IMG/VR virus record: IMGVR_UViG_3300033512_000032
Span: 1 to 58,368 of that record
Direction: 5' to 3' (one strand)
Length of the DNA stretch: 58,368 nucleotides
DNA from: a virus
The translations under genes and the position numbers were made by a program. Below, piece by piece: positions 14,018 through 17,952 of the stretch. Each line of letters begins with the position of its first letter. Positions within the stretch are counted from its first letter, which is position 1. The notes under the pieces were generated by a model. It did no database searches. It was not told the origin of the DNA and worked only from the letters and a program-made list of their open reading frames with translations.

Positions 14018-14761
14018 GTGATGTGCCCAAATGATTTTGGAAAGATTGTAGATAAAACATATCTATCAGTTGACTTAGCAGAACGTAGAGGTTTTCTGCA
14101 TCGGGACTATATCGCGCATTGTTTCCGCTGGTCGCATGTTATAAAGTTTCTTAGTGAAAAGAAACGATACGAATCCGCACATATCCTTGATATAGCATGC
14201 GGAAAAGAAACACCGCTTCTTAAAACCCTGTATTCATCACGTCTTATACCACAGTCTTATTGTGGCATCGACTTCGGTCCTATTAATCCGCCAGATCCCG
14301 CACTTATGAAGAAGTTCCCCGTAACTCTTTATCCTAACTATAATATCCTCGACATTGAACCAACTAAAGGTTGGACGCAGATTGCCATGTTTGAATGTTT
14401 GGAGCACATGGAAGCTGACATGGGTCGTGAGGTCCTCAAGCATATACAAGGGTTCATGACCTCTGGACAGACAACGTTCTTTATGTCTACTCCCTGTTTT
14501 GATGGACACAAGGCTGCCAACCATGTCTACGAGAGAACGTACGAAGAACTACGCGAATTGCTACTTACGTTAGACTATAAAATAGTAAATGTCTGGGGGA
14601 CTTTCGCCTCGATTAAAGATTACGTAGATCATTTTACATCAGAGCAAAGAGAAATCTTTGATGAACTGCGAGAGTACTATGACTCGAATGTTTTGTCTGT
14701 GATCTTTGCGCCTATGTTTCCTGAATATTCACGTAATGCTTTATGGCAGTTAACAATTTAA
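14018..14761 (+). CDS. Class I SAM-dependent methyltransferase-like protein
   Basis: Motif I-like ILDIACGKE, an acidic beta-2 end YCGIDF, and IAMFECLEHM typical of small-molecule type methyltransferases. No DPPY or PC DNA-methyltransferase motifs. An ATG at 14021 is an alternative start. First gene of the nucleotide operon. Confidence 0.65.
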   Translation: MMCPNDFGKIVDKTYLSVDLAERRGFLHRDYIAHCFRWSHVIKFLSEKKRYESAHILDIACGKETPLLKTLYSSRLIPQSYCGIDFGPINPPDPALMKKFPVTLYPNYNILDIEPTKGWTQIAMFECLEHMEADMGREVLKHIQGFMTSGQTTFFMSTPCFDGHKAANHVYERTYEELRELLLTLDYKIVNVWGTFASIKDYVDHFTSEQREIFDELREYYDSNVLSVIFAPMFPEYSRNALWQLTI

Positions 14762-14762
14762 T

Positions 14763-15176
14763 ATGCTGAACTATAAACCTTTGGAGGATTTTATGATTCA
14801 CGAAGTAATAGAGTTCAATGCTAAAGTACTAGGTATTGAACAGAGGCCAATTCACCTTTTATCCGAAGATGAAAAAGATTTCTTGGAGAGAGCACTCTAT
14901 GAAGAAACGTTTGAGTTTCAAGATGCTCATACTACAAGTGATATTGTTGGTGTGGTTGATGGGTTGCTTGATCTTTGTTACTTTGCAATTGGTGGACTGT
15001 ACAGGTCTGGTCTTACCGAGTTGCAGATAGAAAAGTGCTTCACTGTAATACACCAAGCTAATATGCAAAAGCAAATTGGTATACAAAAAAAGCGTGGTGG
15101 TAAAGCAATTGATGCAGTGAAACCTGAAGGTTGGAAACCTCCGGAAGAAAAGATAAAGGAGATACTTAATCTATGA
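14763..15176 (+). CDS. MazG/HisE-like all-alpha NTP pyrophosphohydrolase
   Basis: ExxE-type motif LYEETFEFQDA and DGLLDLCYF (DxxDxxY) in a 137-aa helical protein. Confidence 0.65.
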   Translation: MLNYKPLEDFMIHEVIEFNAKVLGIEQRPIHLLSEDEKDFLERALYEETFEFQDAHTTSDIVGVVDGLLDLCYFAIGGLYRSGLTELQIEKCFTVIHQANMQKQIGIQKKRGGKAIDAVKPEGWKPPEEKIKEILNL

Positions 15177-15742
15177 ACGGTATCATAATCACCGACGGCC
15201 CTGACGCCTGCGGCAAATCAACGCTGCAGCAAGCAATTGTAGAAAAATATGGTGCAGTATCAGTCCACTTAACTTACCCTGCGCCTGAACAATATCAAAA
15301 TATGTTTGACTATCAGTTAGATGAGTTGTTAAAAGCAATTGATTTATCTGCAGAGAACTTAGTCGTTATTGACCGACACTGGATCAGTGAAATGATCTAT
15401 GCCAAGGTGTTCAGGGGTGGTAGCCCCTGGCCTCGCATGCCTTATGTCATGGATGCTTTATGTAGATTCAATGGTGTATTATATATTCTATGTATGCCTG
15501 GAACGATTGAAGCAACAGTCAAACGGCACCGTGAAAATATTGATTCTAACCACCCATACTCTGATGAGAAGTTCACTGAATTACTGCAAGAGTATAATAA
15601 TTTTTACTTGAAGACAGGGGCTGCACGGCTTGATATGTTGAGGTATACCATTGAAAGAAATGGTGATAATCTTGACCGATTTATAACGGATGCTGTAAGA
15701 CAATTGTTAAGCATCAGAAGGATGTTAGCTGCATGGAAATAA
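15173..15742 (+). CDS. Thymidylate-kinase-like dNMP kinase
   Basis: P-loop DGPDACGKST plus VIDRHWISEMIYA (the DRxxxS..Y of the TMK fold). ATGA-coupled to the MazG-like gene. Confidence 0.65.
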   Translation: MNGIIITDGPDACGKSTLQQAIVEKYGAVSVHLTYPAPEQYQNMFDYQLDELLKAIDLSAENLVVIDRHWISEMIYAKVFRGGSPWPRMPYVMDALCRFNGVLYILCMPGTIEATVKRHRENIDSNHPYSDEKFTELLQEYNNFYLKTGAARLDMLRYTIERNGDNLDRFITDAVRQLLSIRRMLAAWK

Positions 15743-16560
15743 CTGGCTATACAGCAACTGAAACATGGCTCAGTTTAATTGAGCAGATAAAGTGGTCCGG
15801 GAAGATAGTTTCTCCGCGTGGTATCCATTGTCTTGAAACTATTAATATGCATACAGTAACATGTATGCATAACCCAATTGTTACTTCAGTCGAAAGAGAT
15901 TTAGGTTACCGCTTTTTATTTGCTGAAGCGGCATGGATATTAAGTGGTGACTTTCGTGTAAAAACTATAACAGCTTATTCTAAAACAATTGCTAATTTCT
16001 CTGATGATAATGTAACGTTCTTTGGAGCGTATGGTCCAAAGATCAAAGAACAACTTGACTATGTCTGTAGTAAACTCATTGCAGATGAGGATACACGGCA
16101 AGCAGTATTAACTATATGGCGAGAGAACCCACCACAAACGAAAGATACGCCATGCACGGTAGCTGTACAGTTTATTATTCGTGATAGTAAACTACATTGT
16201 ATAGTTACAATGCGTAGTTCAGATGCATGGCTTGGTTGGCCGTATGATACGTTTAATTTCAGTATGCTTAGTTCTTTAGTAGCAATAAAGCTTAACTATA
16301 TGGCAGGTTTGAAACTAGATCTTGGCTGTATCTATATGAACCTCGGGTCGTCACATATCTACTCATCTAACTTATTAGGAGTAGAGAAATGCTTAAATAG
16401 TAAAGGTAAAACTTTAAAGGCATATCCAATGTTATATCCAATTGGTGAGTGGCAATCGCCAAATGAATTAATCCATGATCTATGGGCAATTGCTGAAAGA
16501 CGTCCTGCTGATCTTTATAGTAAATGGGGTGAGATGTTCGCCAACGAAACTTATAAGTAA
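15733..16560 (+). CDS. Thymidylate synthase superfamily enzyme, predicted deoxycytidylate C5-hydroxymethylase or methylase
   Basis: Aligns without gaps to the E. coli ThyA core: PCTVAVQF...MRSSDAWLGWPYD versus PCHAFFQF...QRSCDVFLGLPFN. The catalytic Cys (16153..16155) is kept. The residue 31 positions later is Asp (16246..16248) instead of Asn177. Confidence 0.75.
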   Translation: MEITGYTATETWLSLIEQIKWSGKIVSPRGIHCLETINMHTVTCMHNPIVTSVERDLGYRFLFAEAAWILSGDFRVKTITAYSKTIANFSDDNVTFFGAYGPKIKEQLDYVCSKLIADEDTRQAVLTIWRENPPQTKDTPCTVAVQFIIRDSKLHCIVTMRSSDAWLGWPYDTFNFSMLSSLVAIKLNYMAGLKLDLGCIYMNLGSSHIYSSNLLGVEKCLNSKGKTLKAYPMLYPIGEWQSPNELIHDLWAIAERRPADLYSKWGEMFANETYK

Positions 16561-16571
16561 AGGAGAGTACA

Positions 16572-17258
16572 TTGAAAGAGCAAACTGTTAAAGCAATTAA
16601 TGATATTAAACAGATGGTAGAGAATATAAGTCGTGGTGGCATTGAAGATTTAATTACATTTATTGATACTGGTTCTGACTTCTTTACTGCACCGGCTTCT
16701 ACTAGATTTCATCTTGCTTATGAAGGTGGATTAGCAGAGCATTCATGGAATGTAACTGATCTTCTTTTTAAAAAGAATGAGCAGTATGGAACTAACTATG
16801 ACTATGACACATTAGCAATTGTAGGTTTATTCCATGACCTCTGCAAAACGAATATGTATAAGTTAGTTGCTGAAGATCCTACTGATGCGCAGTTAAAGTA
16901 TCTAAGTTCTCTTTGTAAAGGCAAGGTGCCAAAAGCCCCTGGCAAATTACATAAAGCTTATGTTAGTGATCTCATCAACTTCTACGTTAAAGGTGGCAAG
17001 GAACCAGAGTACACACCTGGTAGTTATCAGATTGAGAATACTTTTCCAGTTGGCCACGGTGAGAAGTCAGTGATGCTTCTTCAAAAGTTTATTGAATTAA
17101 CTAATGAAGAAATTTATGCTATTCGTTGGCACATGTGTGCATGGGATATTAGCCCGTATGCTACTTATGACTATAATGAAGCGGTGAAGAAGTCGCGCCT
17201 TGTGACTTTAATTACAACAGCTGATATGGAAGCATCAAATATTCTGGAGGTGCTATGA
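16572..17258 (+). CDS. HD-domain phosphohydrolase
   Basis: TTG start after AAGGAGAG. Motifs RFHLAYEGGLAEHSWNV, GLFHDLCK and HGEKS. Confidence 0.7.
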   Translation: MKEQTVKAINDIKQMVENISRGGIEDLITFIDTGSDFFTAPASTRFHLAYEGGLAEHSWNVTDLLFKKNEQYGTNYDYDTLAIVGLFHDLCKTNMYKLVAEDPTDAQLKYLSSLCKGKVPKAPGKLHKAYVSDLINFYVKGGKEPEYTPGSYQIENTFPVGHGEKSVMLLQKFIELTNEEIYAIRWHMCAWDISPYATYDYNEAVKKSRLVTLITTADMEASNILEVL

Positions 17259-17512
17259 CAGACATGAAAGATGTTGAACGTAATTTGTACATAACAGGAG
17301 GGGTTCTTATTTTTCTGGCTACTATGCTTTTGATCTATGCGTTAGTAACTATTTTCCTTGGTCAGATACCAGTAGAGACTAAGTATGAACCGACTAAATA
17401 TCAACAAGAAGAAATAAAAAGGTTACATAAGAAGCATGGTGTTAGTTTATCCATTGACAACGCAGGTTACCGTTACTTTATCCGTAATGGAAAGGTTTGT
17501 GAGTTGAAATGA
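17255..17512 (+). CDS. Hypothetical single-pass membrane protein (85 aa)
   Basis: ORF that is ATGA-coupled on both sides, with the hydrophobic helix ITGGVLIFLATMLLIYALVTIFLG. Confidence 0.65.
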   Translation: MTDMKDVERNLYITGGVLIFLATMLLIYALVTIFLGQIPVETKYEPTKYQQEEIKRLHKKHGVSLSIDNAGYRYFIRNGKVCELK

Positions 17513-17952
17513 GAGTAGATGAGCACGACTATTTTATGGGTATTGCAAAGCAAGTTGCTACTAGAAGTGCTTGTGTTAGTCGGCAGGTTGGTTGTGTACT
17601 TGTAGATAAGCACAAACATATTTTAGCAACAGGGTATAATGGACCTCCAAGGGGAATTGAACATTGTCGTCAGTGCCATAGACACGAGTCTGGTCGAGAT
17701 CTTTATGAATGTAGTGCTGTCCATGCTGAAATGAATTCTTTATTGCAATGCCCAGATGTAAATAAAATAGTATCTGCTTACGTTACAATAAACCCCTGTA
17801 TGATCTGCGCAAGACTACTTGCTAACACTTCTTGCCAGACTATAGTCTTTGATGAAGTATATACCAACCAATCTTATGCTGACTTCACCAGGTTCTGGGG
17901 TCAGAGATTAGAGCGAAAAATAGTTTATCTTCGAGGTGTACTTAAGAAATAA
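17509..17952 (+). CDS. dCMP deaminase (ComEB/cytidine deaminase-like zinc enzyme)
   Basis: VHAEMN (H-A-E) and PCMICA (PCxxC) zinc-binding motifs in a 147-aa protein. Confidence 0.85.
   Translation: MRVDEHDYFMGIAKQVATRSACVSRQVGCVLVDKHKHILATGYNGPPRGIEHCRQCHRHESGRDLYECSAVHAEMNSLLQCPDVNKIVSAYVTINPCMICARLLANTSCQTIVFDEVYTNQSYADFTRFWGQRLERKIVYLRGVLKK

Follow-up and report, generated by a model that had tools for sequence, protein, structure and literature searches.

A methyltransferase-headed gene block predicted to supply a C5-modified cytosine nucleotide in an uncultured tailed phage

The virus record IMGVR_UViG_3300033512_000032 of IMG/VR, a stretch of 58,368 nt that we analysed as a whole and call the window, carries a block of seven genes followed by a gene for a family A DNA polymerase (PolA). 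We number them g1 to g7: a class I S-adenosylmethionine (SAM) methyltransferase-like gene, a MazG-like NTP pyrophosphohydrolase, a TMK/YorR-like nucleotide kinase, a homolog of the thymidylate synthase ThyA, an HD-domain hydrolase, a small open reading frame (ORF) with a predicted membrane helix, and a deaminase of the dCMP deaminase family. We propose, at a probability of about 0.6, that the block encodes a pre-replicative route that replaces cytosine by a C5-modified cytosine, most likely 5-hydroxymethylcytosine (5hmC) or a derivative of it. A sequence-only reading of the same DNA had suggested a supply of modified dCTP combined with a drainage of canonical dCTP, and the core of that idea gains support from signature residues in the active site, from conservation in hundreds of phage contigs, and from a cultured relative with the same cassette, Stenotrophomonas phage AXL3, whose DNA resists restriction.

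In the proposed pathway, whose steps are all deduced from the protein families, the residues of the active sites and the genomic neighbourhood, g2 would hydrolyse dCTP, and probably dUTP, to the monophosphate, which would empty the canonical dCTP pool and supply dCMP. With methylene-tetrahydrofolate, g4 would convert dCMP to 5-hydroxymethyl-dCMP, g3 would phosphorylate the modified dCMP, and a host NDP kinase would complete the triphosphate, to be incorporated by the adjoining family A polymerase. The deaminase g7 would divert dCMP or dCTP to dUMP, thereby removing cytosine nucleotides and feeding the synthesis of dTMP by host enzymes. Since the window lacks a thymidylate synthase, the host enzyme would have to make dTMP, a step for which many relatives carry their own ThyX. 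Finally, g1 would tailor the modified cytosine or its nucleotide precursor.

The ThyA homolog and its predicted product

The residues of g4 point to a dCMP hydroxymethylase. While g4 belongs to the thymidylate synthase family (Pfam Thymidylat_synt, 6e-19), its scores against the NCBIfam models of canonical ThyA reach 17-52 bits vs cut-offs of 108-427. We aligned g4 with E. coli ThyA, T4 gp42, the Xp12 5-methyl-dCMP synthase and relatives, and also within an 82-sequence MAFFT alignment. In both alignments, Cys141 coincided with the catalytic C146 of E. coli and Asp172 (WPYD) with N177. Three residues before the catalytic Cys, Asp138 (KDTPC) occupies the position of E. coli L143; Asp164 (RSSD) falls on D169, and the His147 position holds a Thr. 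We refer to this combination as the Asp/Cys/Asp/Asp (D/C/D/D) signature and use E. coli numbering for its positions below. Asp at N177 is the established switch of substrate from dUMP to dCMP, as given in one report (PMC8670742) and repeated as a rule in another (PMC13326640), and Asp replaced Asn177 in 82/82 clade members aligned. The ternary complex of the T4 dCMP hydroxymethylase shows the Asp at position 143 activating the water for its attack on the exocyclic methylene; the D145N variant of that enzyme makes no 5hm-dCMP, and thymidylate synthases carry Leu at position 143 (PMC6400193). Position 143 has been described as separating hydroxymethyl from methyl products (PMC13326640).

Further features fit the same assignment. 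The thymidylate synthase-like C-terminal tail (Y-x-P...V/I-COOH), which seals the active site of thymidylate synthases and is present in E. coli ThyA and in the 5-methylcytosine (5mC)-type enzymes of Xp12 and a marine phage (uvMED), is missing from g4, which ends in a different extension of ~50 aa that may take its place. Among solved proteins, the CMP hydroxymethylase MilA is closest to g4 in sequence (2.4e-18), with thymidylate synthases following at ~1e-10. MilA likewise has Asp at positions 143 and 177 (PMC13326640), but it acts on the ribonucleotide CMP in mildiomycin biosynthesis, whereas g4 lies in a DNA replication module. No DHFR gene turned up in the window or at any of 59 related loci, which fits a reaction that returns tetrahydrofolate and not dihydrofolate. 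Because of the Asp at N177, the Asp before the catalytic Cys, the Asp at 169 and the missing tail, we predict that g4 is a 5-hydroxymethyl-dCMP synthase; given dCMP as the substrate, a hydroxymethyl product seems quite likely. A 5-hydroxy-dCMP synthase of the RB69 type was also considered for g4. D169N is the signature of these newly described enzymes, typified by RB69 gp48 (PMC13326640), and the candidate was ruled out by the Asp, not Asn, at that position.

Published experiments on AXL3 are consistent with a hydroxymethylated or bulkier base. The same cassette occurs in AXL3, in Pseudoxanthomonas phage PW916 and in two uncultured spring-water phages. In AXL3 (gp31-gp27), as in PW916, the orthologous genes keep the order methyltransferase, NTP pyrophosphatase, kinase, ThyA homolog and deaminase, and the AXL3 ThyA homolog gp28 is 45% identical to g4 with the same D/C/D/D signature. 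AXL3 differs in being a GC-rich siphovirus, in the extra C-terminal domain of its kinase, in its ThyX (gp50), and in the lack of an HD gene. Out of 37 enzymes with sites in its genome, only 2 cut AXL3 DNA (at AATT and TTAA), and none of the 35 whose site contains G/C did so, KpnI and Eam1105I among them (PMC7504290). By comparison, KpnI and AhdI cut the fully 5mC-substituted DNA of Xp12 to completion, where AhdI recognises the same GACN5GTC site as Eam1105I, while 5hmC-containing T4gt DNA resists KpnI, AhdI, BamHI, BglII, EcoRI, HindIII and MspI (PMC7653180). Set beside Xp12 and T4gt, the AXL3 pattern thus fits 5hmC or a bulkier base, not plain 5mC.

The domains of the block also resemble those found in DNA that was physically selected for modified cytosine. 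According to the MetaGPA study, Thymidylat_synt, dCMP deaminase, PRA-PH and DNA_pol_A were enriched in such DNA, as were Thy1, dUTPase, AAA_28, DUF932 and Thymidylate_kin (PMC8670742); a follow-up study describes a neighbourhood of Asp177 ThyA, PRA-PH, deaminase and PolA for modified-cytosine contigs (bioRxiv 10.1101/2024.12.05.627091). The window shares with the contigs described there a Thymidylat_synt with Asp177, PRA-PH, a dCMP deaminase and a DNA_pol_A with exonuclease, and DUF932, AAA_28 and Thy1 are among the enriched families (PMC8670742; bioRxiv 10.1101/2024.12.05.627091). The two studies characterised a carbamoyltransferase as the tailoring enzyme, and the window has none.

Several observations weigh against a 5hmC pathway. 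In place of the Ser/Thr-x-Tyr motif of hydroxymethylases, which reads Ser-Asn-Tyr in T4 (Ser94-x-Tyr96) and Thr-Ala-Tyr in MilA, g4 has Gly-Ala-Tyr, as does Xp12. The nearest solved relatives of g2 are 3nl9 and DR2231, and the specific substrate of DR2231 is dUTP rather than dCTP. The window was found to lack any type of thymidylate synthase, an absence that an Xp12-like deamination of the modified nucleotide would explain. At two related loci, L037 (thymidylate synthase hit at 9161) and L074 (hit at 10890), the methyltransferase stands beside ThyA homologs with Trp80 and Asn143, like Xp12, so that the methyltransferase is not strictly tied to a hydroxymethyl product. Lastly, the AXL3 methyltransferase is only ~29% identical to g1, which makes the transfer of the AXL3 phenotype to the window phage an inference.

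An Xp12-like 5mC route is the main rival. In it, g4 would reductively methylate dCMP, the product would be phosphorylated and incorporated, and g7, as a methylation-selective deaminase, would turn a share of the 5-methyl-dCTP into dTTP, or of the 5-methyl-dCMP into dTMP. Such a route would suit a window without an Asn-type ThyA, ThyX or DHFR, but we consider it unlikely. Xp12 itself provides the precedent: in clusters of the Xp12, PaMx74 and mSCD-B5 type, as in the window, an Asp177 ThyA homolog has a deaminase of the dCMP family and a MazG-like domain as neighbours; the Xp12 protein that adjoins its 5mdCMP synthase matches g2 over its N-terminal part at 39% identity, and the Gly-Ala-Tyr of g4 is common to both enzymes. 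Yet g4, only 26% identical to the Xp12 enzyme, carries Asp where Xp12 has Asn143, and T4 hydroxymethylation needs a carboxylate at this position. It also lacks the tail that the Xp12 enzyme retains, and the DHFR gene that lies beside the Xp12 synthase was found in 0/59 loci of the module; nor does Xp12 have a g1-like methyltransferase. Deaminases in cis with an Asp177 ThyA are often selective for 5mC, and the cluster deaminase mSCD-B5 can make dTTP from modified dCTP, turning 5mdCTP into dTTP and acting on 5hmdCTP too (bioRxiv 10.1101/2024.12.05.627091). Close relatives of the window phage, by contrast, carry ThyX plus an orthologous deaminase, and AXL3 DNA resists both KpnI and Eam1105I, cutters of 5mC DNA.

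The published account of AXL3 gp27-gp31 is that of an ordinary dCMP to dTDP pathway (PMC7504290). Applied to the window, ordinary dTMP synthesis or salvage would have the deaminase make dUMP, the ThyA homolog dTMP and the kinase dTDP, with the MazG-like protein as a dUTPase, unmodified DNA, and a methyltransferase that is an unrelated DNA or RNA methylase. The database names of each protein agree with this explanation, as does the dUTPase that is the nearest solved relative of g2. We nevertheless hold it to be highly improbable: the dUMP-specifying Asn177 is replaced by Asp throughout the aligned clade, the additional ThyX of relatives would be redundant, AXL3 DNA resisted all enzymes with G/C in their sites, and the domains are enriched in contigs physically selected for modified cytosine. 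For AXL3 itself, we argue that the cassette (L003, 3668-7702) makes a modified cytosine instead, because gp28 has the Asp177/Asp143 signature and the phage has its own ThyX (gp50); this would explain the restriction resistance of AXL3.

The conserved unit and its nucleotide enzymes

The block proved to be widespread, though in a shorter form. We scanned IMG/VR with a g1 profile, which gave 214 relatives, and with a profile of the ThyA clade, which gave 373; the counts cover the 65 loci that extend 4 kb or more downstream and the 59 usable loci, respectively. Around g1 homologs (n=65), a ThyA homolog was present at 64 loci, MazG at 58, the kinase at 56, PolA at 50 and the deaminase at 45. Around ThyA homologs (n=59), the kinase was present at 57, MazG and the deaminase at 50 each, the methyltransferase at 49 (83%) and PolA at 41, while HD and ThyX genes occurred at 1 locus each and DHFR and beta-glucosyltransferase at 0. 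The genes mostly stand in the order methyltransferase, MazG, kinase, ThyA, deaminase and PolA, with the deaminase almost always between ThyA and PolA at the ThyA-anchored loci. From these counts, five genes plus PolA make up the conserved unit, to which the HD gene and the membrane ORF were added locally. The seven-gene unit for which the sequence-only reading had asked for comparative genomics therefore holds for five of its genes, together with PolA, and fails for the other two. Three metagenomic relatives (L009, L010 and L012) are syntenic with the window from a DUF932 gene through PolA to genes resembling Pam3 gp32-34. A marine podovirus has a four-gene version without the methyltransferase. 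The ThyA homologs linked to a methyltransferase carry the D/C/D/D signature in 68/70 cases, the two others having Asn143, and 7 of the 68 form a separate T4-gp42-like clade with Ser-x-Tyr.

The cultured pelagiphages HTVC119P and HTVC200P carry a ThyA homolog of the g4 clade (51% identical) with the D/C/D/D signature. In HTVC119P (L004, 5487-6771), a short g3-like kinase, annotated as hypothetical, precedes the ThyA homolog. These abundant marine phages may carry modified cytosine.

The pyrophosphohydrolase g2 scored 26.9 bits vs a cut-off of 21.3 for Pfam PRA-PH (PF01503) and matched the PHROG family of nucleotide pyrophosphohydrolases at 1e-21. We infer that it acts as a dCTP/dUTP pyrophosphatase returning dCTP to dCMP, the role of gp56 in T4. 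In L009 (10793-11209) and L010 (11083-11544), a gene with the PF00692 dUTPase fold fills the slot of g2, a non-orthologous displacement which indicates that the job of this slot is a (d)NTP pyrophosphatase activity. The claim that the window has no dUTPase was borne out for the PF00692 fold and became doubtful for the activity, since DR2231, the MazG-like relative mentioned above, is a dUTP-specific enzyme. In Xp12, the protein annotated as 'hydrolase (HAD superfamily)' (L005, 46207-46980, - strand) has a MazG-like N-terminal region; Xp12 thus also pairs a MazG-like domain with a ThyA homolog.

The kinase g3 matched PHROG 761 ('thymidylate kinase') at 1.6e-14 and, through a profile of its orthologs, SPbeta YorR (2axp) at 2.5e-12. 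Its scores stayed below the cut-offs of the kinase models, with 17.8 bits vs 27 for PF02223 (TMK) and 19.6 vs 83 for TIGR00041, and AAA_28 was below as well. The P-loop GPDACGKST and a DRHWISE motif (DRxxxSE) are present. We suggest that g3 is a dNMP kinase for the modified dCMP, as gp1 is in T4. At 32/65 and 34/59 loci, the kinase is longer, at ~330 aa, with an extra C-terminal domain of ~150 aa that g3 of the window does not have; examples lie in L009 (12027-13004), L010 (11541-12542), L012 (11229-12245) and AXL3 (L003, 5037-6020). The motifs PFYEY..SSLFL and HPQ(W/Y)xKRF are conserved in this domain, for which we found no Pfam or PDB sequence match and which may be UDG-like. Because of this fusion in relatives, a post-replicative 5-hydroxymethylpyrimidine DNA kinase (5-HMUDK-like) was also considered for g3 and set aside, the N-terminal domain being TMK/YorR-like and the C-terminal domain absent from the window.

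The deaminase g7 is a clear member of its family, with 62 bits vs a cut-off of 25 (4.5e-17) for Pfam dCMP_cyt_deam_1 (PF00383), 1e-37 for the PHROG dCMP deaminase, and solved relatives that include the S. mutans dCMP deaminase (6.5e-16), T4 cd, human DCTD and the PBCV-1 enzyme. Its zinc motifs HAE (HAEMN) and PCxxC (PCMIC) are intact. We favour a conversion of dCMP (or dCTP) to dUMP (or dUTP) by g7. In L009, the g7 ortholog (62% identical) shares a block with a ThyX gene, which lies three genes upstream of it; deaminase and ThyX are also both present in L012, a few kb apart, and in AXL3. The presence of ThyX alongside the deaminase in these three favours the ordinary route from dCMP to dUMP. 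The sequence-only reading had also allowed for a deaminase that acts on the modified nucleotide, and the study of methylation-selective deaminases (mSCD) documents such enzymes in 5mC phages, but for g7 this is the less likely option. By lying in cis with an Asp177 ThyA homolog, g7 has the property by which that study selected its enzymes; the selective trait is described there as polyphyletic and not predictable from the clade (bioRxiv 10.1101/2024.12.05.627091).

The methyltransferase at the head of the block

The core of the module is already known from the MetaGPA studies, and the new element is the conserved methyltransferase. A Methyltransf_23-like gene is unmentioned in the accessible parts of these studies (PMC8670742; bioRxiv 10.1101/2024.12.05.627091), and we found no Methyltransf_23 row in the accessible part of the MetaGPA enrichment table. 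The probable start of g1 is the ATG at 14021, one codon past the listed GTG. By sequence, g1 reached 22 bits for Pfam Methyltransf_23 (E=1e-4), under the cut-off of 27, and direct sequence searches of the PDB with g1 and g5 gave nothing usable. Its AlphaFold2 model, built with 36 homologs, had a pLDDT of 91.2 and a class I SAM methyltransferase fold. Foldseek returned 575 PDB matches at E<=1e-3, of which the top 50 were all methyltransferases or methyltransferase-fold proteins, the nearest being small-molecule O/N-methyltransferases and Hen1 (TM 0.5-0.67). In BFVD, one match was a phage ortholog and the rest were generic, Hen1-like or cap methyltransferases. The homolog alignment showed motif I as LDIACG with invariant D58 and G62, further invariant polar residues (E126, E129, H130, N168, H169 and E172), and many conserved Arg and His residues in the N-terminal segment. 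Neither DNA methyltransferase motif, (D/N/S)PP(Y/F/W) or PCQ, appeared in the conserved g1 columns as read from the consensus, and the NPPD of g1 itself is not conserved.

The distribution of g1 is informative on its role. We counted 585 homologs in metagenomes and only 5 among 50,697 GenBank phage records, representing four different phages. Within the module, it comes first in nearly every case. The gene pairs with hydroxymethylase-type ThyA homologs of two clades, in several phage lineages that include siphoviruses such as AXL3, and neither Xp12 nor the marine podovirus (uvMED) has a g1-like gene in its 5mC-type cassette. As g1 tracks the hydroxymethylase-type ThyA and skips the 5mC-type cassettes, we tentatively suggest that it tailors the C5-modified cytosine, as nucleotide precursor or in DNA, an idea that we ourselves rate as doubtful. 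Three findings call for caution here, namely the lack of a g1-like gene at 10/59 ThyA-anchored loci, the two loci that pair it with Asn143 enzymes, and the RNA and small-molecule methyltransferases that make up its structural neighbours. The simplest tailoring chemistry, which we raise as a possibility, would be O-methylation of 5-hydroxymethylcytosine to 5-methoxymethylcytosine by a UbiG/Hen1-like fold with a possible metal-binding site, and not by a DNA methyltransferase. A literature search, confined to the library at our disposal, found no report of natural 5-methoxymethylcytosine in a phage.

It is also possible, if not what we expect, that the nucleotide genes act as proposed while g1 is unconnected with the DNA base, being a Hen1- or cap-like RNA or a small-molecule methyltransferase, for instance one that counters host defence, co-inherited with an early block that begins at DUF932. 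The top Foldseek matches (Hen1 2'-O-, cap and small-molecule methyltransferases, with no DNA methyltransferases), the absence of a conserved DPPY or PCQ motif, the ThyA-anchored loci without the gene and its two occurrences with Asn143 ThyA homologs all agree with such a role. It sits less well with the 1 nt that separates g1 from g2 and a position kept in most of the scanned loci, or with a gene that follows the hydroxymethylase-type ThyA over two clades and several phage lineages and is absent from the 5mC-type uvMED and Xp12 cassettes.

Genomic setting, known systems and implications

All seven ORFs claimed for the block were recovered on the + strand (Table 1), and the family-level assignment of each (methyltransferase, MazG, kinase, ThyA, HD, membrane protein and deaminase) holds. 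Their close packing was confirmed as well: junction lengths computed by script on the raw sequence gave overlaps of 4-10 nt and gaps of 1-11 nt across the seven.

Table 1. Features of the gene block and its surroundings in the window. Junction, distance to the next gene; negative values are overlaps.
Feature	Positions	Strand	Junction	Remarks
DUF932 (TIGR03299-like) gene	12101-13156	+		upstream of module
g0, upstream gene	13483..13923		+94 nt (to g1)	
Stem-loop between g0 and g1	13946..13996	+		RNA fold
g1, class I SAM methyltransferase-like, 247 aa	14018..14761	+	+1 nt	first gene of module
g2, MazG-like all-alpha NTP pyrophosphohydrolase	14763..15176	+	-4 nt	ATGA
g3, TMK/YorR-like P-loop nucleotide kinase, 189 aa	15173..15742	+	-10 nt	
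g4, ThyA homolog, predicted dCMP 5-hydroxymethylase	15733..16560	+	+11 nt	AAGGAG inside gap
g5, HD-domain metal-dependent hydrolase, 228 aa	16572..17258	+	-4 nt	
g6, small ORF, one predicted transmembrane helix, 85 aa	17255..17512	+	-4 nt	
g7, dCMP-deaminase-family zinc deaminase, 147 aa	17509..17952	+	+43 nt (to PolA)	
PolA, family A DNA polymerase with 3'-5' exonuclease	17996..19840	+		Pfam DNA_pol_A 8e-59 + DNA_pol_A_exo1
Pam3 gp32/gp33/gp34-like trio and HNH_3 endonuclease ORF	20491-22388 and 22466-22933	+		after polymerase
ORF of 3,784 aa	27814-39168	-		opens structural arm

The hairpin noted upstream of g1 is real, the segment 13920-14020 folding at -29.7 kcal/mol (z = -3.4) with 0/200 shuffles as stable. 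It could act as a partial terminator or mark a processing site; the terminator scan left it uncalled because its U tract is weak. The promoters P3 and P4, proposed upstream of the block and at its end, found no support, as a sigma-70 scan of 12800-20100 gave 19 sites vs 24.4 in shuffled sequence. The extended -10-like element TGTGATATAAT lies after the g7 stop codon, before PolA, and occurs a single time in the window.

The two accessory ORFs have a narrow distribution. The Pfam HD score of g5 was 25.4 bits vs a cut-off of 22, its AlphaFold2 model had a pLDDT of 94.6, and H57, H88, D89, H162, H187 and D218 (H...HD...D metal ligands) were invariant in 40 homologs. Its profile matched the HD domain of the 3'-5' exoribonuclease YhaM weakly (6.5e-6), and YhaM was also the best Foldseek match (E=0.017, TM about 0.5), followed by YqeK-like proteins. 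Of the label HD phosphohydrolase, the family thus stands, with Pfam above cut-off, but the nearest known relative is an exonuclease and not a nucleotide phosphohydrolase. Among the related loci, the HD gene occurs only in the closest relatives, those of the L009 and L010 type, and we take g5 for a lineage-specific accessory hydrolase, perhaps a nuclease that recycles nucleic acid into dNMPs. The hydrophobic segment of g6 spans residues 17-35 (Kyte-Doolittle maximum 2.79); no tblastn homolog was found in ~170 related loci and no Pfam or PHROG family above threshold, and g6 is probably unrelated to the pathway.

The window is laid out like the genome of a tailed phage: replication genes occupy an arm on the + strand, and structural genes, among them those for the capsid, the tail collar and an SU10-like portal and adaptor, one on the - strand. 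DUF932 lies upstream of the module in 31/65 of the relatives' loci and is conserved wherever the flanking sequence permits a check. The Pam3-like trio is conserved in relatives too, and between it and an AEP primase gene lies an HNH_3 endonuclease ORF that may be a homing endonuclease. The single 3,784-aa ORF, about one fifth of the genome, had no Pfam match at E<=0.01 and could be a virion-associated giant protein. Pfam and tblastn searches elsewhere in the window found no ThyX, Asn-type ThyA, dUTPase, DHFR or beta-glucosyltransferase, in line with the earlier statement that a glucosyltransferase and an Asn-type thymidylate synthase are absent.

The core of the module is of a published kind, the Asp177 ThyA clusters of modified-cytosine phages, for which the T4 and Xp12 pathways are the paradigms. 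As in T4, dCTP would be destroyed, dCMP hydroxymethylated by a ThyA homolog, the product phosphorylated by a phage kinase, and dCMP deaminated. The earlier view that the block is built from protein families different from those of T4 holds for g2 and g3 only. While g2 is MazG-like with no detectable similarity to gp56 (a dCTPase/dUTPase) and the kinase is of the TMK/YorR type, g4 is a member of the gp42 family and shares with gp42 the Cys, Asp177 and the Asp that precedes the Cys by three residues; g7 and cd likewise are of one family. The window phage further differs in a g4 that shares just 23% identity with gp42 and has no Ser94, in having neither a glucosyltransferase nor a phage thymidylate synthase, and in holding its genes in one methyltransferase-headed block, whereas T4 genes 56 and 42 lie ~9 kb apart in the 16-kb stretch read.

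If our proposal is true, an uncultured phage of ~58 kb replaces its cytosine fully and before replication, and hundreds of relatives in marine and other viromes do likewise. This would bear on evasion of restriction and CRISPR, on sequencing and library bias in viromics, and on the search for enzymes of use in epigenetic sequencing. Our results also revise the published annotation of the AXL3 cassette, which had been taken for ordinary thymidylate synthesis, and as AXL3 and PW916 are cultured, the identity of the final base is open to direct test. The practical value lies in the methyltransferase, a highly conserved companion of hydroxymethylase-type ThyA homologs over phage lineages. If its product were indeed 5-methoxymethylcytosine, a widespread phage group, with hundreds of IMG/VR contigs, AXL3 and PW916 among its members, would carry a base not yet described in nature.

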